A stretch of DNA of 64,000 bases from Pseudomonas phage HPP-Temi: the sequence record PP968062.1, one strand, 5' to 3'. This document shows positions 4,819 through 33,135 of this stretch, in pieces (the stretch's first letter is position 1; every line of letters begins with the position of its first letter). Under the pieces are notes generated by a model. That model made no database searches and was not told where the DNA came from. It was given only the letters and a program-made list of their open reading frames with translations. A program made the position numbers and the translations under genes.

Positions 4819-5284
4819 TCTGATAGAACTCTTTGTGATTTCGACTAGTATCTTTACAGAGTTTGATATAGTCTAGCATCTCACTAAGTTCAGTAAGTTC
4901 AAGACCGGTCTTCTCTGCAAGAGCCACGATTGCACGCCCAAGCACGTTTACTTGTTCTACGACAGGATAACGTTGAGTGATCTTGTAAGCCATCTGGTTG
5001 TCCAGCTGTGCTTCATAGATCAGACGAGGACCTTCGTTCTCTCCAAGAATAGAGTAGTTCTTTTCCCAGGTTCCATCGTCATTGATGGTGAGGTCACCGA
5101 CAACTCGGTCACCATTAAACAGATCCATGTTGTCTTCAACATAGATCACGTTTGGGTTATCTGGATCGCATTGATCGATAGTCATCGAAGTAGCAACGAT
5201 GAACTTACCATTCAGACGGTTAAAACAAAGGACAACAGGTTTACGACCCTTTTCAGGTTCTGGTACATTATGAAAATCGAACAT
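4688..5284 (-). CDS. Hypothetical protein (198 aa)
   Basis: ORF directly downstream of the tail-fibre array on the same strand. Confidence 0.5.
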   Translation of the reverse strand: MFDFHNVPEPEKGRKPVVLCFNRLNGKFIVATSMTIDQCDPDNPNVIYVEDNMDLFNGDRVVGDLTINDDGTWEKNYSILGENEGPRLIYEAQLDNQMAYKITQRYPVVEQVNVLGRAIVALAEKTGLELTELSEMLDYIKLCKDTSRNHKEFYQNDPNYEYITNEQEAEDRAATFEGGLHELIGPRNIEGGRVFATS

Positions 5285-5296
5285 GTGTAATTTCCT

Positions 5297-6661
5297 TTAG
5301 ACGATTCGAGTGAGACTACTACCGTTACGGCGCATTACAACCATTGTTGGCATTTTGCGACCATTGTTGAAGTCCAGCAAGTATTGAGCAAATCCATAAC
5401 CACCATCAGCAATCTGCGAGATATTTGCCTGGAGAGCACTGATAGCAGCTTGAGCGCTAGCATAACGTCCACCAGCATAATAGTGCCCACGTGCATTGGC
5501 ATTATAAGTCGCAAATAGATCACGGAAGTGAACGATTTGTCCATTACCCATAATGCAGTAGTCAGACGGGATATTTGGACGACCTTGAGGATCAGTTCCA
5601 GTAGGAGGCCATGGAGTTGGGAACGACGTAACGAATTGTTTTAACTCAAAACGAGTGATGTTCCAAATGTTACTAGCGTCAAGGTCAACTCGCGCTGGGA
5701 AATACAATTGTTCCCAACCTACACCAGCTAACAGTTTAGACGTAAATGCACGCTGTGTACGGTGAAGCCGTTGTGCATAGACTGCATCAATCTCGGCTTT
5801 GCTGTACAGGTTCATGATTGCCAGTGTTAACCCATGTGGGTTATTTTGATTACGGATGTGGTCTGTAAGCTTTGGAATCAAAATGGATTGGATTAGATTA
5901 AAGATACCTCCAATTGGCATATACACATTGGTAAGAGTAGTATCTGTTGACTGGGCTTTTGTGGCCATTGGCCAGTTATTAATTAGACCCAACTTAATCT
6001 TTGTCTTATCCGAAGAGTGCGGGTTATTTTCATCGGTTATGTGAGCATTCACCCGATTGATATAGTTTTGCACTTCGTCTTTCGCAAGCTGAACGTAATA
6101 TTTGTAATAGTCCGTACCAGAAGCGAGAATCGCAGTTCGCCCGGCTGCCCATGCATCACCTAAACGGTTAATATTGACAACTGTGGACTCAAGACCATAC
6201 AACTGCCAATACTCATGCATGTGTTCAGATGGAGTATATGCAGTCGGCTTACCGATGATTTCTTCCCAAGTAAACTTAAGATTAGTCTCATCTATTTTCT
6301 CCATCAGTGCTTTGAGTTCTTTTACAGAAACACTGAAGAATCCACCAACTGCATGGTATTCCACTCGAACGACTGGAGTGACAGAAGCATTGGTGATAAC
6401 CACAAGGCCCATCACATTCTGCCCAGTCATTTCAGAAAGCTTTTCGTAGTGATAGGTTAAAACATAGTCCTTACCACGTACGAGTGCTTTACCAGTAGAG
6501 TCCCTTAGTACAAAGCCATTCGTATAGAAACCACCATGGGTACAAACGAACACACGATGCTTCTTACCAGGAACTTGAATTAGAGTGTGTTCCTCACCTT
6601 TAATCCAGTTATCTGGATCTTCACCAGTAAGGTCAAGCTCAAGAAAAGTAATATCGTTCAT
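5297..6661 (-). CDS. Tail fibre-like protein, paralog 1 (shared N-terminal anchor domain + NPH fibre repeats)
   Basis: N-terminal domain shared with ORFs 6662-8068, 8079-9446 and 9864-12152 (L.LD.TG.DP.N..GE.HTL....G.......HGGFY...L.V.D.....L..GKDY.....MVGG). Repeats AHITDENNPHSSDKTKIKLGLINNWPMATKAQ and HIRNQNNPHGLTLA. Confidence 0.6.
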   Translation of the reverse strand: MNDITFLELDLTGEDPDNWIKGEEHTLIQVPGKKHRVFVCTHGGFYTNGFVLRDSTGKALVRGKDYVLTYHYEKLSEMTGQNVMGLVVITNASVTPVVRVEYHAVGGFFSVSVKELKALMEKIDETNLKFTWEEIIGKPTAYTPSEHMHEYWQLYGLESTVVNINRLGDAWAAGRTAILASGTDYYKYYVQLAKDEVQNYINRVNAHITDENNPHSSDKTKIKLGLINNWPMATKAQSTDTTLTNVYMPIGGIFNLIQSILIPKLTDHIRNQNNPHGLTLAIMNLYSKAEIDAVYAQRLHRTQRAFTSKLLAGVGWEQLYFPARVDLDASNIWNITRFELKQFVTSFPTPWPPTGTDPQGRPNIPSDYCIMGNGQIVHFRDLFATYNANARGHYYAGGRYASAQAAISALQANISQIADGGYGFAQYLLDFNNGRKMPTMVVMRRNGSSLTRIV

Positions 6662-8068
6662 TTATACCTTCCAGGAATTTAGCAATGTATCAAACACAGC
6701 GAAACCAACGGAGTTAATATACGTTGTGATTGCACCGTTACCAGTACCGATACCCCAGCCACCAAGATAACGGAAGATGGCCGTTGTACCAGCAGGGTGG
6801 TTCCTACCTAGCACGTTGTTCAACTGAGCTTCAGCGTTTGCACCATTAGGATCGAACGATCCAGCAGCGTAAATAACACTCTTTGGTTTATCGATCCAGG
6901 CTTCTTGAATATCGACCCAATGAAGCCAACTGGCGGCGTCAGCTGATGCAGGAACAAGGAATGCGTAGTTACTGGCCGGTGGGATTACCCCACTTGCAAA
7001 CGTTTGTGGTGGTAACAGACCTGTCTTTATCTGTCCAAGGATTTCGTTTGTGCGAGTGTACTCATAAAGCTCTTGGAATGTCATTCCATTGTTAGTCGTA
7101 TTGTTATTGGCATCTTTAACACCACCAATACGATCAGTACTGTTAACAGTTTCACCACGGTTGTAATAGTTCCCAGCTACTTGCTGGTGTTCTTGAACTG
7201 TATACGTACCGAGTTTGGCGGCTGTCTCTTTGTGAGGGTTATTACGGTCCTCAATGTGCGCTTGTAGAATCGGTATGAAATTCTTATCGATACTTTGTTT
7301 AGCGCGTAATGGCGTAGCATAACGATCAAGGATATCCCCATTGGCTGCTTCAGCTTGATCTTTAGTAGCAATAGCAGCATTCTTCACTTTTTCAAGCTGT
7401 ACTTTTGCAGCTGTGAGTTTGTGAGGGTTATTACGATCGTTAATGTGGGTAGTAAGACGTTGTTCGATGGAGGTAAGCTCATCTCCAACTAAAGCCAGTT
7501 CAGCTTTATATTGATCAAACAGAGCGTCCATATCTTTCTTTACGAACTTCTCACCAGCGGCGGTGATTCGCTTAAGTAGTAATACTTGAGGCGTAAACCC
7601 ATATAGTTCCCACAATGCGTGTAGGTGGCCGTTAGGTTTATAATCATCCGGTTTACCAGTGATGTTGTTCCAATGGATTTTCCGAGTATTGTTGATCAAC
7701 CCAAGTGCTTGGTTAGCGATCGCTTTACCAAGGTTACAGTAAACACCACCGACCATTTGGGCATCAACCCTGATCTCATGGTGAACCCGAGGGTTCTTAA
7801 TGACAATAACTGCAAAAGCTGGAAGACCAGTCTTCTTAGTAATCTCTGGATGCATCTGAGTGCATTGAAAATCGTCCTTCTCTTTTAACACATAGCCACG
7901 ACCATCGATCATGTGCAAGTTGTTATTATAGAAGTACCCTTTATCCAGAACAATCACCCGATATGGCAGACCAGCTTGATCTGCCAAGTTGTGGTATTCT
8001 CCACGCGTGCGGTTATTGAAACAAGTGCCCGTCCCATCATAGGGAAGAGCGTGAAGTAATGGGTTCAT
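6662..8068 (-). CDS. Tail fibre-like protein, paralog 2
   Basis: Same N-terminal domain; repeats THINDRNNPHKLTAAKVQLEKVKNAAIATKDQAEA and AHIEDRNNPHKETAAKLGTYT. Abuts paralog 1 with no gap. Confidence 0.6.
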   Translation of the reverse strand: MNPLLHALPYDGTGTCFNNRTRGEYHNLADQAGLPYRVIVLDKGYFYNNNLHMIDGRGYVLKEKDDFQCTQMHPEITKKTGLPAFAVIVIKNPRVHHEIRVDAQMVGGVYCNLGKAIANQALGLINNTRKIHWNNITGKPDDYKPNGHLHALWELYGFTPQVLLLKRITAAGEKFVKKDMDALFDQYKAELALVGDELTSIEQRLTTHINDRNNPHKLTAAKVQLEKVKNAAIATKDQAEAANGDILDRYATPLRAKQSIDKNFIPILQAHIEDRNNPHKETAAKLGTYTVQEHQQVAGNYYNRGETVNSTDRIGGVKDANNNTTNNGMTFQELYEYTRTNEILGQIKTGLLPPQTFASGVIPPASNYAFLVPASADAASWLHWVDIQEAWIDKPKSVIYAAGSFDPNGANAEAQLNNVLGRNHPAGTTAIFRYLGGWGIGTGNGAITTYINSVGFAVFDTLLNSWKV

Positions 8069-27088: not shown

Positions 27089-29314
27089 TCAACCCTTAAC
27101 GGCGTCGACCAGGGGCTTGTTCCACTGAGACTCACCCATCACTTCTTCGAAGCCAGTAACGTCGAATTCGAGAGCGAACGGGATGTTGTTTACGTGCAGG
27201 TTGAACGGAATCGCAGCGATTTCGCGAGTAACTTGCTGGCCACCACGGGTGATCGGCAGGTCGGCGATTACGGTCGATACGTAGTAGAATTGACCGAAGC
27301 TGAGGATGTCGTTCTCTTGCGGGTTCTTACGAGTCGGAACCACTACCAGTTTACCGTCGAACAGTTCGTTGTTGGTCGATACCAGGTCGTATTCCAGGTA
27401 AGCGCCCAGGGTACGATCGTCGCCCTTGGTCATCAGGTAGTTAGCGATCTCTTTGTCCGAGCAGAACAGGAACATCGGACGCTCGTCTTGGTTGCCGGAG
27501 ATCACACGGAAGGCTGCTTCGATGTTGGATTCACGGTAGGCCGGGAACAGTACACCTTTAACAGCGTTCAGGATTGCCGAGCAGACATCTTCCCAACGGT
27601 CTTGCGACTTCAGGGTGTCGATCATGTCAGGCAGGTGCAGCTTCTTGTAGCGGTAGGTCGGACGCATTACTGCGGACAGAGCACCTTCAACAGCACCGAA
27701 CTGCGGACGGTCGAAACCGTTAGCGGTTACTTCTTTCAGCTGAGCCAGGTAGTTCAGCAGGCGCTTAACAGCGTTGTTGCTGTTACGGATGTTGGTGTTG
27801 ACAGTCAGAGCCTTAACAACTTCGCCCGGACCTTCTTCGTCCATGGTGCTCAGCGGCAGGGTTACCGGAGCGTGCATCGGAATCGGGTGACGGAATTGCA
27901 GGGCACGAGTTTGCAGCAGGTGACCACGCTGACGACGGTTGGTGTTGGTGAAGCGGGTATCGAGGTCGAAACCAACGATTTCCATTTCGCCAATGCTGTC
28001 GACCAGTGCTTTACCATCGCCAGTTTCCAGATCGATACGACGCTTGTCTTCGTCCAGGATACGGTCGATAGTTACTTCACCAATGGTGAAGCGGCTGTCG
28101 CCACGGCTCAGGCTAACGTGACCGCTGAATTGCATGCTCAGACGCAGAACCCACTTACGTTGTTCCAGTTCTTTCATGCCAGCAGTTTGAGCTGCATCAG
28201 TAGTACGAGTAACGGCCGATACGGTCAGGTCGTCAGACCAGAAGTCGATCTTGGCGCCACGGGTATCACCAACCAGGTCCGGCTGGAACACTGCGCGCGG
28301 CAGACGTTCGGTTTGGAACTTGATGACTTTACCTTGGAACTTCACGTACAGAGCCTTCAGGCGGCCCGACGGATCGATGGTGTCCGAAATGTCCAGCATG
28401 CCTTTGTTGATCAGCAGGTTGGCGTTCGAGTTACCCATCAGGTCCAGTTTAACGCCCGGCTTCAGCGGAGCAGTTTCGATGGACATGTTTTGTTCGTTGA
28501 TAACGGTTACCGGAGGCAGCAGAGCCGGATCAGCGAAGTACTTCAGGTTGGTACCAGCAGGATCGATGGCCGGGATCAGTGCAGTGCACTCGTCGTCCAG
28601 GATGGACGGATCACGATAGGCTTCAACCATGTTGACTTCTTGGTTGTCGAGCTTCTGACCGGAAACAGCGTGGTAAACGTCTTTCATTACCGCGATGTAC
28701 GGCAGTACCTGAACCACACCGCCCTCGATCGGGTTGATTACGGTGGTCGGATAGATACGCTCAGCGAACTCGTCCTGACGGGAAGCAGCCAGGTTATAAC
28801 CAACGGTCACAACGCGGAAGTCACGCTGGGATTTCTCGTTGTAGTTTTCCAGACCAACGCCAGCAGCAGCTTCGAAAGTTTGGATCGAACCAGCCGGGCC
28901 ATCAAAGCGGTGTTCTACCGAAATGACGTTCTTGTCAGTGGAAGCAATTTTCTTACCAACTTGTTTCAGAGCCTTAACGTACTCAGTGGAGTTGGACATT
29001 GCCAGAGCAGCCATGGTAGCGGCCGACAGTTGGTTCTCGCCTACACGGCTTGCAGCGCCTTCGAAGGATTCGAAGCCACAGGTACGGGCGATCTTTTGCA
29101 GGCTAGCGTACATGCCAGCAGCGCTTTGAGCATCTTCGTCGCTCAGTTGACCGAAGGATTCCAGGCCGATTTTACTGATCAGTTTGCTACCGGCAGACAG
29201 AACGCTGTCACCGTAGTCTTTTTCCAGATCCAGTTTACCCAGGAAGTTTTCCATGGAGAAACGAGTCAGGTTTTGTTCGCCGTTCACTTTGAACAGAGCT
29301 TTAAGGTCTTTCAT
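27089..29314 (-). CDS. Putative major capsid protein (741 aa), phiKZ gp120-like by size and context
   Basis: Length 741 aa (remembered phiKZ gp120 about 747 aa). Strong long hairpin terminator downstream; neighbouring head/inner-body genes. The + strand ORF 27194..29320 is an antisense artifact. Confidence 0.55.
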   Translation of the reverse strand: MKDLKALFKVNGEQNLTRFSMENFLGKLDLEKDYGDSVLSAGSKLISKIGLESFGQLSDEDAQSAAGMYASLQKIARTCGFESFEGAASRVGENQLSAATMAALAMSNSTEYVKALKQVGKKIASTDKNVISVEHRFDGPAGSIQTFEAAAGVGLENYNEKSQRDFRVVTVGYNLAASRQDEFAERIYPTTVINPIEGGVVQVLPYIAVMKDVYHAVSGQKLDNQEVNMVEAYRDPSILDDECTALIPAIDPAGTNLKYFADPALLPPVTVINEQNMSIETAPLKPGVKLDLMGNSNANLLINKGMLDISDTIDPSGRLKALYVKFQGKVIKFQTERLPRAVFQPDLVGDTRGAKIDFWSDDLTVSAVTRTTDAAQTAGMKELEQRKWVLRLSMQFSGHVSLSRGDSRFTIGEVTIDRILDEDKRRIDLETGDGKALVDSIGEMEIVGFDLDTRFTNTNRRQRGHLLQTRALQFRHPIPMHAPVTLPLSTMDEEGPGEVVKALTVNTNIRNSNNAVKRLLNYLAQLKEVTANGFDRPQFGAVEGALSAVMRPTYRYKKLHLPDMIDTLKSQDRWEDVCSAILNAVKGVLFPAYRESNIEAAFRVISGNQDERPMFLFCSDKEIANYLMTKGDDRTLGAYLEYDLVSTNNELFDGKLVVVPTRKNPQENDILSFGQFYYVSTVIADLPITRGGQQVTREIAAIPFNLHVNNIPFALEFDVTGFEEVMGESQWNKPLVDAVKG

Positions 29315-29387
29315 GTTTGATTCCTACGCAGGATGGGTTTTGGTTATTACAAAATATCTTGTCAAACAAAGCTGGTATTTTCCGGAT

Positions 29388-29924
29388 TCAGCTTTGCGAC
29401 TCCAGATAATAAGTGAAGAGATTTGTTGCCATTACTTGCTCAAATGGGCAAGCTCTAGTCAGCTCGCTAATCATACTATCAAAGAAAGTATGGTTAGCCT
29501 TGATTGTGAGCCGGTCAGGATCGCTTGAACCAGTGTGCAGACTCTTCTGCACCGCAACCCAAAGATACTCATCTACAGGATAAAGGCTATAAACACTGAT
29601 ATAATCAGAGTCGTTAGCTTTACGTAGTGCCAAGTTAGCAATACGTTCCCCTAAACGATTATGCAATTCTTGCATCTTGAATTGATTTTCGTCTTCGGTG
29701 GTTGCCACTTGGGCGATCCCGACTATCGGACTGTCGGCTTTCTCGATCTGAGTGCCTTGACAGAACCGGAAGGGGAATTCATTGATAGCAGCGTCGATCT
29801 CCGCAAGGTCATTTACCGAGCTTACGGAAGCTATATAGTTGGGGCAGAGTAGCTTAGTAAACTGCACGCCATCAGCTTTGTACTGATCATAGACTGCTTC
29901 GGGGATAACAAGTAACTTGATCAT
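29388..29924 (-). CDS. Hypothetical protein (178 aa)
   Basis: ORF on the minus side of a divergent intergenic region (29925-30061). Confidence 0.5.
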   Translation of the reverse strand: MIKLLVIPEAVYDQYKADGVQFTKLLCPNYIASVSSVNDLAEIDAAINEFPFRFCQGTQIEKADSPIVGIAQVATTEDENQFKMQELHNRLGERIANLALRKANDSDYISVYSLYPVDEYLWVAVQKSLHTGSSDPDRLTIKANHTFFDSMISELTRACPFEQVMATNLFTYYLESQS

Positions 29925-30061
29925 CGGGATATTGACCTATTGTGGGACCAAGGCTATTAAGTGTCTACATAGGAATATATACTTAATTCGGAGACAAATT
30001 ACTTACGATAAAAATGATACACGGTACATCATTTTAAATTTACTAAAAGGATGCGGTTCAA

Positions 30062-31600
30062 ATGTCCTCCCCAAAACAGCTTCTTGTCAGTTGCGTTACC
30101 CTACTTTGCCTGGAACATCGCCCTGATTCTCCAGCTTCTCCTTCTACCGAACTGATAGACAAAATCGTTGGTTCTCTTGAAATTAAAGAAACTACCGTAG
30201 ACCACGATCATGGTCGTCAGACTTTCCTTGAACTGCGTAAGTTGGTTCAAGATCTTAATAAGAAGGTTAAGCACGAATTCCCGAGCATTGCTGAAGTTCT
30301 GCAATCTGTGCAAGTAAGTTGCCGTGAAGAGAACTATCTGTACGAAGCCGTGCTGAATGGTGTTAATGAGAACTTCCCAGATGGGATGGCCATTATGCAT
30401 CGGATTAACTCCTATCGCCGTTCGCTTAATGAATACATCAACGATGAAACTATTAAAGCGATCATGAAGGAGTATTCTGCTAAGCTTCTGTTTAACCGTG
30501 GTGGCGGTAATGATATCGCTGGTATGATCAACGAGATGGGCGCTAAGCTTGATCCTTATGTAAAGGCTCGTGCTGAAAGTCGACATCCCGCTGAAATGGG
30601 TTGCCTTGATTTTGACAACCCTGAAGGTGTAGAAGAATTCTTCGAAGCTGTACAAACTACTTTGTCTGCTGATGGTGCATTCAAATTAGGTTGGAAAGGT
30701 TTCAACCGAGTATTGGGTAGTTTGGGTGCTTTCCGTCGTGGTGAGTTCATTACCACTGCGGCACTGCAACACAACTTTAAGTCTTACCTGGTTATGCTGT
30801 TGTTCGTTCACGTGGCTCTGTTCAACAAGCCGTATATGCGTGACAAGTCTAAGAAGCCTCTGCTTCTGTTTGCAACTCTTGAAAACGAAATCGCTGACAA
30901 CCTTCTGACCATCTACAAATACATCCGTGAAAACGAAACGGGTGAGGAAGTCATTGTTAAGGACATCGACAAGCGTGAAGCAGCTGCTTATGTTTGTGCT
31001 CGTCTGGAAGAGAATGGCTTCAAAGTTAAGATGGTTCGTTTCGACCCAACCGAGTTTACCATTGGTGGTTTCACTAACTACCTTGATGGTCTGCAAAGCC
31101 AAGGTTACGAACTTCAGTTCCTGGTAGTTGATTACCTGAACATGCTGCCTAAAACTGGTCTGGATGCGAAAGTAGCTGGTGACGACATTCGTCTGTTGTT
31201 CCGTCGGATGCGTAACTATACTACTCCTCGTGGTATTACTTTCATTAGTCCTCATCAGCTAGGTTCTGACGCTCTGCAACTTATGCGTGAGAACACTGAA
31301 GACTTTGTTAAGGTAGTAGCGAACAAAGGTTACTACGATGGATGTCGTCGTCTGGGTCAAGAACCTGACCTAGAACTGTTCCACCACATCATCCGCCATA
31401 AGGGCAAAGCGTATCTCGCTATTCAGCGAGGTAAACACCGTAACACTGTAACTGGTGAAGAGGATCAGTATGTCCTGTTGCCATTCAGTAACATCGGTAC
31501 GATCCCATGGGACATTGATAAAGAAGAAGACTACTCGATGAAAGTTGTACCGGGTTCGGTAATCGGTGGTGATCTTGATTCTGACGCTTGGTCCATCTAA
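30062..31600 (+). CDS. DnaB-family helicase-like protein with degenerate Walker A (512 aa)
   Basis: C-terminal RecA-fold motifs of DnaB type: LQFLVVDYLNML (DnaB H2 / Walker B, IDYLQLM-like), DIRLLFRRMRNYTTPRGITFISPHQLGS (H3-like), DLELFHHIIRHKGKAYLAIQRG (H4-like). The expected P-loop position reads GSLGAFRRGEFITTAALQHNFKSY, with no GKT/S. Confidence 0.45.
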   Translation: MSSPKQLLVSCVTLLCLEHRPDSPASPSTELIDKIVGSLEIKETTVDHDHGRQTFLELRKLVQDLNKKVKHEFPSIAEVLQSVQVSCREENYLYEAVLNGVNENFPDGMAIMHRINSYRRSLNEYINDETIKAIMKEYSAKLLFNRGGGNDIAGMINEMGAKLDPYVKARAESRHPAEMGCLDFDNPEGVEEFFEAVQTTLSADGAFKLGWKGFNRVLGSLGAFRRGEFITTAALQHNFKSYLVMLLFVHVALFNKPYMRDKSKKPLLLFATLENEIADNLLTIYKYIRENETGEEVIVKDIDKREAAAYVCARLEENGFKVKMVRFDPTEFTIGGFTNYLDGLQSQGYELQFLVVDYLNMLPKTGLDAKVAGDDIRLLFRRMRNYTTPRGITFISPHQLGSDALQLMRENTEDFVKVVANKGYYDGCRRLGQEPDLELFHHIIRHKGKAYLAIQRGKHRNTVTGEEDQYVLLPFSNIGTIPWDIDKEEDYSMKVVPGSVIGGDLDSDAWSI

Positions 31601-31610
31601 TGACATAAAT

Positions 31611-31630
31611 GCCTTCCCTCCGGGGAAGGC
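31611..31630 (+). terminator. Hairpin GCCTTCCC tccg GGGAAGGC followed by TTTATTCAC, after the DnaB-like gene
   Basis: Perfect 8-bp GC stem 11 nt after the stop; CATAAAT on the left. Confidence 0.6.
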
Positions 31631-31660
31631 TTTATTCACAAATTCACAAGAGTAAATAGC

Positions 31661-32062
31661 ATGAGTTGTATTGACGCACTGATTGATAACCTAAAGGGTT
31701 ACCTTCGTTTCAATCTACAACAACGTCATGGTACTACTGTTCTGGTACATGTGGCATCCCAAAACCTCTATAAAGTAAAATTCGAAGTAGCTAAGCTTTT
31801 CATTAATGCATTAGATGGCATGGAAGTTGACTTCCTTACAATGTCCGCCAATGAGATCATGGAGAAGGGTGAGCGTTATCGAGCATCCCTGTTCTTTAGT
31901 CATCATCTCCATATCGACATTAAGCAGAAAGCTGCCCCATATCCAGATGGTGATTTCCTTGGAGTGGACGTAACCAACTATTCCAAATACTTCTACGATA
32001 CAGACCCGTGTCAAGAAGGTCAGGCTATGTTGGCTAACTATCTCGAAGAACGTAAGACCTAA
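31661..32062 (+). CDS. Hypothetical protein (133 aa)
   Basis: ORF followed by hairpin GCTCCC tacg GGGAGC TTTATGTCGTC at 32069-32095. Confidence 0.5.
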   Translation: MSCIDALIDNLKGYLRFNLQQRHGTTVLVHVASQNLYKVKFEVAKLFINALDGMEVDFLTMSANEIMEKGERYRASLFFSHHLHIDIKQKAAPYPDGDFLGVDVTNYSKYFYDTDPCQEGQAMLANYLEERKT

Positions 32063-32118
32063 CATACTGCTCCCTACGGGGAGCTTTATGTCGTCACAAT
32101 CTTATAACACTAATTAAC

Positions 32119-33135
32119 ATGGAATTCATCATGTTCGGACAAGACGAAAATAATATCTGGTTAGAATACCCTAGTACTGGCTTTGAAGATATCGAAAACG
32201 CGCGTAAAGTCGCTAACAGTTTGGATAGCCTGGCATTTAAGGTACGCAGTGCCCCTGTAGCGTCGCTGGAAGCATTTTGTATTGCTTTTAATGCCATCGT
32301 AGGCGAAGACTTCAAACCCTCTAGAACGGTCTCTTTGGAGGGCTTTAGTGGGGCTCCGTCTCCTATGCATCATCTGGCTACTCGTATTACCCAACATAGT
32401 AACAACATGCACGGAGCAATTAACCTTGCTTTAGAAGATTTCAACAAAGATGCTCTAGCTAAGTTTAAAGAAATCGTTGATGGTTATCGGAAAGCCCGTG
32501 CTCAATTGGATCATGTGAAGACAGATCTTGAGCCTACTGATAGCGTCGTTAAGATCAATCACGAGCGCGTCTGGAAACTGTTTAACAAGAATAACAAATT
32601 CGTTAAACCCGAATCCATTAAAGAAGATGTGATGGATGTTGGTAAGATCGTAGGTACTATCAAAGATGCAGCTGTTAGACTTAGCTCTGGTCGCCCTGTT
32701 CAACTAGATCCCGCTAAGTACGAACTGATGATGAACACTTTCGTTGTGATTAAGGATAACTCCATTACGTTCGAGTCTCCTGAACCTCCGAAACCCAAAG
32801 ACGAATACAGTGCTGGTGACATCGCTTGGATCGTTGGTTGGAGTGTCATGTTTAACGTTGTTGGTCTTATCGGTTCTCTGATTTTCAAGAAGAAGACTGC
32901 TTCTGAAGCTGATCGGAAACGTGGCGTTAATGAAATGCTTGCTTTCATCAATACGATCAAAGGTTTCGATCGGAGTATCACTGAGATTGAAAGTGCAATC
33001 AAAGCACTACAGCAAACTGAAGAGAACAAAGAGATGTCAGCTATGCTGATCAATAGTGCTATCAAGCTTACCAAACATATCACAGACGTCACTTACGGTG
33101 CTGCTGTGTTGTTCACTAAGATTTCTAAGAGTTAA
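32119..33135 (+). CDS. Hypothetical protein with one TM segment (338 aa)
   Basis: Hydrophobic segment IAWIVGWSVMFNVVGLIGSLIF; followed by terminator GGCGAGG tttgg GCCTCGCC at 33145-33164. Confidence 0.5.
   Translation: MEFIMFGQDENNIWLEYPSTGFEDIENARKVANSLDSLAFKVRSAPVASLEAFCIAFNAIVGEDFKPSRTVSLEGFSGAPSPMHHLATRITQHSNNMHGAINLALEDFNKDALAKFKEIVDGYRKARAQLDHVKTDLEPTDSVVKINHERVWKLFNKNNKFVKPESIKEDVMDVGKIVGTIKDAAVRLSSGRPVQLDPAKYELMMNTFVVIKDNSITFESPEPPKPKDEYSAGDIAWIVGWSVMFNVVGLIGSLIFKKKTASEADRKRGVNEMLAFINTIKGFDRSITEIESAIKALQQTEENKEMSAMLINSAIKLTKHITDVTYGAAVLFTKISKS

Follow-up and report, generated by a model that had tools for sequence, protein, structure and literature searches.

We have analyzed a gene in a 64,000-nucleotide stretch of DNA (the window) from Pseudomonas phage HPP-Temi (sequence record PP968062.1) that encodes a divergent DnaB-like replicative helicase. 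In the open reading frame (ORF) listing the gene is a complete, ATG-started ORF of 512 codons plus a stop codon (30062..31600 on the plus strand), and its initial methionine is nearly invariant in an alignment of the family. The inferred product matches Pfam PF20307, "Divergent DnaB-like ATPase" (divDNAB), with 509.4 bits (cutoff 26), the match covering profile positions 1–351 of 356 and residues 151–500 of the protein, and it also matches PHROG 3213, "DnaB-like replicative helicase." The nearest database protein is a "putative helicase" of phage PA1C (99% identity). PF20307 is found in all of 605 relatives, some of which carry PF03796 (DnaB_C) as well, and an exhaustive hidden Markov model (HMM) search returned 1272 family representatives at 50% identity. 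Among the orthologs are PS119XW gp140 and, as named in the notes of the PhiPA3 record, phiKZ gp118, 201phi2-1 gp197, and EL gp076. At the level of DNA, positions 29000–32095 of the window are ~89% identical to Pseudomonas phages phiHQ, PA1C, PS119XW, and BRkr, 78% identical to PhiPA3, and 72% identical to 201phi2-1.

The gene belongs, as an unexceptional member, to a curated family, and earlier publications describe both the protein and the unusual form of its ATP-binding motif. Iyer et al. (2021) counted this divergent DnaB among the hallmarks of group-1 (phiKZ-like) jumbo phages; they noted that its ATP-binding motif is modified and its Mg site intact, and they predicted that it is active (PMC7824862). 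It serves Prichard et al. (2023) as a "replicative helicase" marker of the core genome, placed in core block 5, and one ortholog, RAY gp315, was localized inside the phage nucleus (PMC10299810). What the present analysis adds is the exact register of the motif, the family-wide residue counts, the repeated exchange of glycine and aromatic residues in the loop, and the precedent provided by UvsX.

An AlphaFold2 (AF2) model built from the family alignment has a mean pLDDT (predicted local distance difference test score) of 85, rising to 89–96 near the P-loop, with helices at residues 4–144 and 152–200. When the model was compared with the PDB using Foldseek, the top 50 matches were all members of the DnaB family (probability 1.00, E 2e-16 to 9e-13), namely, DnaB of V. 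cholerae, G. stearothermophilus, E. coli, Aquifex, and Thermus as well as T4 gp41 and SPP1 G40P. The alignments took in 480–520 columns of the 512-residue query, including the N-terminal domain, and an HMM alignment to Aquifex DnaB paired profile positions 120–403 with residues 96–358. An N-terminal helical domain and a linker precede the ATPase domain and are collinear with those of DnaB. The N-terminal domain (30062–30496) is well conserved; its bacterial counterpart docks primase. KaiC and RadA were considered as the parent family and rejected: their matches were far weaker (E 0.01–0.2) and confined to the P-loop region, whereas those to DnaB span the N-terminal domain and every motif. The assignment to the DnaB family in the initial annotation, which was made from the sequence alone and had allowed that RecA-fold proteins other than DnaB might prove to be the best matches, is therefore upheld by the Pfam score (509 bits), the structural matches, and a 95% hhalign probability.

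The initial annotation had also called the P-loop degenerate, quoting GSLGAFRRGEFITTAALQHNFK (residues 219–240) as the segment in which the Walker A motif should lie. The quoted string is present, it is in the right register, and a pattern scan found no canonical [AG]xxxxGK[ST] anywhere in the protein. A phmmer search of the PDB with the single sequence gave no relevant match. In an alignment of 31 family sequences K240 is invariant within a segment of the form RRGEF.L.GALQHN[F/Y]K[S/T]G, and the resulting profile laid aLqHnfKs on ARPSVGKT of G. stearothermophilus DnaB in a weak match (E 0.15). A profile of 58 sequences, reaching down to 25% identity, matched DnaB 2vye (E 2.7e-6) and Aquifex 4nmn (E 1.4e-5); over the 284 positions of the latter alignment ALqhnyKs is paired with ARPGMGKT, slEn with SLEM, DYLnm with DYLQL, and phQLS with AQLSR. 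Finally, hhalign of the 58-sequence profile with E. coli DnaB (a query sequence checked to be identical to chain 6BBM_A) gave a probability of 95.2% and an E value of 2.9e-8 over 251 columns. These three comparisons, of rising power, yield one and the same register against DnaB, in which the loop A234-L-Q-H-N-F239-K240-S241 stands opposite A-R-P-S-M-G-K237-T238 of E. coli. The idea that a canonical P-loop lay elsewhere and had been mis-registered can be set aside, since the protein has none and hhalign confirms the register. Nor is the loop degenerate, because the quotation ended at ...NFK, one residue before Ser241: F-K-S sits on G-K-T, the Lys240-Ser241 pair is kept, and only the glycine is replaced.

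Residue equivalences for the remaining motifs (Table 1) were obtained by counting hhalign columns, the V. cholerae numbering being that of E. coli minus 3. The literal H1 pattern is missing, whereas H1a, H2, H3, and the H4/arginine-finger motifs are all present; here the initial annotation, which had recognized Walker B, H3, and H4 motifs of the DnaB type, including LVVDYLNML at residues 354–362, was correct. In V. cholerae DnaB, K234 is the P-loop lysine and R439 the β-hairpin arginine finger, and an E259A mutant has no ATPase activity (PMC12214026). As judged from the DSSP assignment and pLDDT of the AF2 model only, a strand (229–234), a loop (235–239), and a helix beginning at K240 reproduce the standard strand/P-loop/helix layout. 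The composite active site thus appears, from its sequence, to be complete, the sole departure from DnaB being phenylalanine 239 in place of the glycine that precedes the Walker A lysine.

Conservation was counted over all 264–265 retrieved family members, aligned to the profile. Lysine 240 is present in 264 of 264 members, as is serine or threonine at 241; E274 and D357 are each found in 265 of 265, Q399 in 249 of 249, D436 in 246 of 249, and K458 and R460 each in 248 of 249. The 58-sequence alignment, whose members are 25–67% identical to the window protein, has just ten invariant columns, and K240, E274, D357, Q399, and R460 occupy five of them. Position 239, by contrast, is occupied by Phe in 159, Tyr in 69, Asn in 13, Gly in 11, Trp in 7, and His in 3 of 264 members. 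A family alignment had been proposed in the initial annotation as a way to learn whether the loss of the glycine is conserved; the loss is indeed widely shared, Phe or Tyr being present in 228 of the 264 (235 with Trp), all with K-[S/T] intact. The neighboring residues Q236, H237, and N238 are strongly conserved in the family at positions at which those of DnaB vary. The 11 members with glycine have a canonical [AG]xxxxGK[ST] (for example, ALQHQGKS) and represent at least seven lineages: one tight clade (70–75% identical to the window protein) and six singletons that share at most 32% identity with each other and whose nearest neighbors carry Phe or Tyr. Glycine and aromatic residues have therefore been swapped repeatedly at position 239 while K-[S/T] has stayed constant, and it is this constancy in the face of exchange that leads us to expect a working phosphate-binding loop rather than a relic. 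The gene is, moreover, under strong purifying selection: relative to PS119XW gp140 it is 87.8% identical in nucleotide and 98.4% identical in amino-acid sequence, with 0.86 synonymous substitutions per site (dS), 0.009 nonsynonymous substitutions per site (dN), and a dN/dS of 0.010.

A precedent for the F-K-S loop is found in the recombinase UvsX of phage T4, whose chain 3IO5 reads LLILAGPSKSFKSNFGL, with GPSKSFKS as its Walker A motif. UvsX is an ATPase that depends strongly on single-stranded DNA, its Walker boxes superpose on those of RecA, and its products are atypical, namely, ADP plus AMP (PMC3016280). An F-K-S loop can therefore work within the RecA superfamily, as this active ATPase with its GPSKSFKS shows. 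The UvsX-like recombinase of PS119XW (gp178; L005 5051–6490, minus strand, outside the window) is without a canonical GK[ST] and reads ...GIASRPNNFKTALAV...; its loop, ASRPNNFKT, has Phe-Lys-Thr, as in the helicase and in T4 UvsX. A phmmer search of the PDB with this protein gave no match.

How many such genes does the phage have? Every ORF of 80 or more amino acids in the six frames of PS119XW (300 kb) and of the window was scanned with the family HMM, filters off, which gave one match per genome, the PS119XW ortholog and the window gene (E ~1e-192). No second DnaB-like gene was found in PS119XW (300 kb) or in the window, the next match having an E value of 0.18; the same HMM detects canonical DnaB at ~1e-6 among 177,635 sequences. 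The PS119XW annotation likewise lists a single DnaB-like gene, yet most of its genes are labeled "hypothetical protein," and it is hence uninformative on its own. Since this close relative, with a genome of 300 kb, has only the one gene of DnaB type, the helicase is not a paralog. It is a core gene and apparently an essential one. In the supplement to a transposon-insertion sequencing (TnSeq) study of phiKZ, PHIKZ118 had 0 insertions in 1476 nucleotides, like the capsid gene PHIKZ120, whereas PHIKZ117.4, which lies just downstream on the same strand, had 17 in 369 nucleotides (PMC12676376). Polarity on downstream genes is therefore not the cause of the absence of insertions in PHIKZ118. The main text of a paper on an antisense-oligomer screen of phiKZ does not mention gene 118 and is evidence neither way.

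These results bear on the proposal of the initial annotation that the protein is an ATPase-dead paralog of DnaB acting as a regulator, loader, or hexamer poison. In its favor stand the absence of a canonical GK[ST] and the damage that replacing the glycine before the Walker A lysine often does in other NTPases of the P-loop class. In a pseudo-enzyme, however, the catalytic residues should be the first to escape constraint, and here the P-loop lysine and Ser/Thr241, the catalytic glutamate, the Walker B aspartate, and the H3 glutamine are invariant and the arginine finger nearly so (248 of 249), even across sequences only 25–40% identical. In some lineages this very loop has the canonical form A-x4-G-K-S in full, a loop of G-x4-F-K-S does not keep T4 UvsX from being active, the genome (as scanned in PS119XW) offers no other DnaB-like gene to regulate or poison, and the gene itself is core and apparently essential. 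We therefore consider a dead paralog extremely improbable. The other suggestion of the initial annotation, a highly divergent mode of nucleotide binding, comes closest to the truth, although what we find is a P-loop that varies at a single position rather than a highly divergent mode.

Very probably, then, the P-loop is a working variant and the protein an active replicative helicase. On this interpretation the window gene would encode the sole DnaB-class (superfamily 4, SF4; RecA-fold) replicative helicase of a nucleus-forming Pseudomonas jumbo phage of the PhiPA3/PA1C type (Chimalliviridae). The protein has the two-tier architecture of DnaB, in which a linker joins the helical N-terminal domain to the ATPase domain of RecA fold. 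It would assemble into a ring-shaped hexamer and bind nucleoside triphosphate (NTP) at the subunit interfaces on the loop formed by residues 234–241. Asp357 and Ser241 would hold the Mg ion, Glu274 would activate the attacking water, and Gln399 would sense the γ-phosphate, with the neighboring subunit supplying Lys458 and the arginine finger Arg460. Hydrolysis would then drive hand-over-hand translocation in the 5′-to-3′ direction and unwinding at the phage replication fork within the nucleus, where the helicase presumably works alongside the divergent family-B polymerase.

Several considerations weigh against this interpretation. The literature searched contained neither an assay of ATPase or helicase activity nor an experimentally determined structure for any member of the family. 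The position before the Walker A lysine is as a rule occupied by a highly conserved glycine, and a large aromatic side chain there could alter the geometry of the phosphate loop; an AF2 model of a monomer in the apo form would not be decisive on nucleotide binding. The invariance of the catalytic residues and the essentiality of the gene would also fit a protein that binds nucleotide but does not turn it over fast. In addition, a global survey detected neither a primase nor a canonical single-stranded DNA-binding protein (SSB) in phiKZ-like phages, so that the replisome context is incomplete (PMC4889955).

A refinement that does not exclude an active helicase is that the aromatic P-loop changes the handling of nucleotides relative to DnaB, be it in NTP preference, in affinity and kinetics, or in products such as ADP plus AMP. 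The prevalence of Phe, Tyr, or Trp at position 239 (235 of 264), together with the conservation of Q236, H237, and N238, speaks for selection for a specific loop chemistry that goes beyond mere tolerance; the UvsX-like recombinase of the phage lineage has the similar loop ASRPNNFKT, and T4 UvsX, with its F-K-S, makes the atypical pair of products (PMC3016280). The aromatic residue is not obligatory, however, since Gly, Asn, and His occur at 239 in scattered lineages with no obvious change in the rest of the loop, and a link between the phenylalanine of UvsX and the production of AMP was neither tested for nor found. On balance, altered handling seems unlikely. A bolder form of the idea is that the occurrence of [F/Y/W]-K-[S/T] in both RecA-fold motors of the lineage and in T4 UvsX is not neutral but a functional adaptation that alters NTP or deoxynucleoside triphosphate (dNTP) preference, affinity, or products. 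This we regard as distinctly improbable; if true, the replicative helicase of chimalliviruses would be mechanistically distinct from cellular DnaB.

The function of the motor, as opposed to its chemistry, could also differ: a protein of DnaB fold might work mainly elsewhere than at the fork, for instance in a branch migration like that of RadA/Sms during recombination-dependent replication. The weak profile matches to RadA and KaiC (E 0.01–0.2), the lack in phiKZ-like phages of a detectable primase (PMC4889955), which is the usual partner of the DnaB N-terminal domain, and the location of the gene among virion genes, outside a replication module, would fit such a role. Yet the best matches in sequence and in structure are all to replicative DnaB and gp41 and include the N-terminal domain that RadA and KaiC lack, the genome has no other helicase of the DnaB class, and the gene is a core gene that co-evolves with the phage DNA polymerase. 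A principal role away from the fork is thus very unlikely, and we retain that of a replicative helicase.

The helicase gene heads a run of genes on the plus strand and diverges, over a 137-bp spacer (29925–30061) that contains a putative ribosome-binding site, from virion genes on the minus strand (Table 1); the ORF map and the annotation of the neighbors agree in this with the initial annotation, which had placed the gene at the head of a unit diverging from the capsid side. The helicase gene and the adjoining genes for the virion protein and the major capsid protein stand in the same order in the window, in PhiPA3, and in PS119XW, and PS119XW additionally encodes a nuclear shell protein and PhuZ.

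Table 1. Features of the helicase gene and its surroundings (positions in the window)
Feature	Position	Strand	Basis or remark
Divergent DnaB-like replicative helicase gene	30062..31600	+	PF20307 E 4.9e-153; PHROG 3213 E 4e-197; 504/512 amino acids identical to PS119XW gp140
AAGGA, Shine-Dalgarno/ribosome-binding-site-like	30047..30051	+	10 nt 5′ of the helicase ATG, by sequence
N-terminal all-helical domain, residues 1–145	30062..30496	+	Collinear with DnaB N-terminal domain and helical hairpin (AF2, Foldseek, HMM alignment)
Linker plus RecA-fold ATPase domain, residues 151–500	30512..31561	+	PF20307 match; hhalign to E. coli DnaB 190–446
Variant Walker A (H1), A234-L-Q-H-N-F239-K240-S241	30761..30784	+	F239 = G236, K240 = K237, S241 = T238 of E. 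coli DnaB
H1a, T-L-E274-N, catalytic glutamate	30875..30886	+	E274 = E. coli E262 = V. cholerae E259
Walker B (H2), L-V-V-D357-Y-L-N-M-L	31121..31147	+	D357 = E. coli D343
H3, S-P-H-Q399-L-G	31247..31264	+	Q399 = E. coli Q384 = Bst Q362
H4 region, L-G-Q433-E-P-D436-L-E	31352..31375	+	Aligned to E. coli I-E-Q410-D-A-D413-L-I
R-G-K458-H-R460, β-hairpin arginine finger R460	31427..31441	+	K458 = E. coli K440; R460 = E. coli R442 = V. cholerae R439
Virion structural protein	29388-29924	-	phrog_14501; among the neighbors of the helicase gene
Major head protein (major capsid)	27089-29314	-	Second gene across the spacer
phrog_17291, unknown function	31661-32062	+	Next gene after the helicase
Virion structural protein	32119-33135	+	Second gene after the helicase; 338 aa, phrog_24630
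ESSENTIALITY			phiKZ TnSeq evidence on PHIKZ118 (see text)

Two features of the surroundings deserve mention. Megablast similarity to PA1C, PS119XW, and phiHQ ends at window position 32095, and the 338-codon ORF that follows (32119–33135) has no near-identical counterpart at the same position in these three phages; PS119XW has only small ORFs beyond gp139. Positions 32096–33135 of the window look like a local gene replacement or insertion. Also, a GTG-started ORF of 708 codons (27194–29320, plus strand) lies antisense over the entire major capsid gene (27089–29314, minus strand). It is almost certainly a shadow ORF that arises from the codon composition of the capsid gene and not a gene.

The ortholog in PhiPA3 (NC_028999.1) is annotated as two "helicase" fragments with a group I intron in the gap between them. 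It contains one insertion of ~1.8 kb (L001 ~4948–6737), with an intron core (RF00028, 83 bits, L001 6392–6685) that overlaps an annotated "putative endonuclease" coding sequence. The insertion falls exactly between the codons for Pro389 and Arg390 (~31228/31229 in the window), eight codons 5′ of the H3 motif. The annotated exons leave out 18 residues (RGITFISPHQLGSDALQL), and the true second exon begins with RGITFISPHQL. Of 16 truncated family representatives, 13 stop at this ...RN[YF]xxP site, which marks Pro389/Arg390 as a place of recurrent intron homing shortly 5′ of H3. At this site the helicase gene of the window is uninterrupted.

As a discovery the gene is of small value: its family is curated in Pfam and is a phylogenetic marker of the Chimalliviridae, and its motif was noted, and its activity predicted, in 2021. 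The analysis does correct a misannotation, in that a missing literal GK[ST] does not here mean a dead P-loop. The residue map (K240, S241, E274, D357, Q399, K458, and R460), together with the GPSKSFKS precedent of UvsX, should also be useful in designing mutants of helicases of the phiKZ gp118 type. The enzyme is a reasonable yet conventional experimental target.

Finally, we compare the protein with known systems. T4 UvsX resembles it in the loop, having Phe in place of the second Gly with Lys-Ser kept and being catalytically active, but it is a filament-forming recombinase that lacks the DnaB N-terminal domain and is no homolog at the level of the family, and the comparison covers loop function only. 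T4 gp41 and SPP1 G40P are full-length structural matches (E ~1e-13 to 1e-14; Foldseek ranks 33, 38, and 47) and are phage-encoded, replicative, hexameric helicases to whose role that of the window protein may be likened. T4 gp41, however, is one of the "standard" DnaB proteins, those of group-2 jumbo phages and T4-like phages; the family of the window protein is the divergent, group-1 version (PMC7824862). With the bacterial DnaB proteins (E. coli, G. stearothermophilus, V. cholerae, and A. aeolicus) it has in common the two-tier architecture with a RecA-fold C-terminal domain and, in register, the Walker A Lys-Ser/Thr, the H1a Glu, D-Y-L, Q-L-S, Q-x-x-D, and the G-K-x-R hairpin. It differs from them in being only 11–17% identical and ~40–60 residues longer, in having Phe for DnaB Gly236 and L-Q-H-N for R-P-x-x, and in that neither a loader nor a primase partner is known for it. 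The closest comparison is with the divDNAB family of PF20307 itself (phiKZ gp118, 201phi2-1 gp197, EL gp076, and RAY gp315). PhiPA3 and ~5% of the family representatives are split by a group I intron after Pro389, whereas the window copy is intact. In all else we see no substantive difference: the protein is a full-length member of the family, its gene occupies the same place by the virion protein and major capsid genes, and its loop is that of the family consensus, A/G-L-Q-H-N-[F/Y]-K-[S/T].

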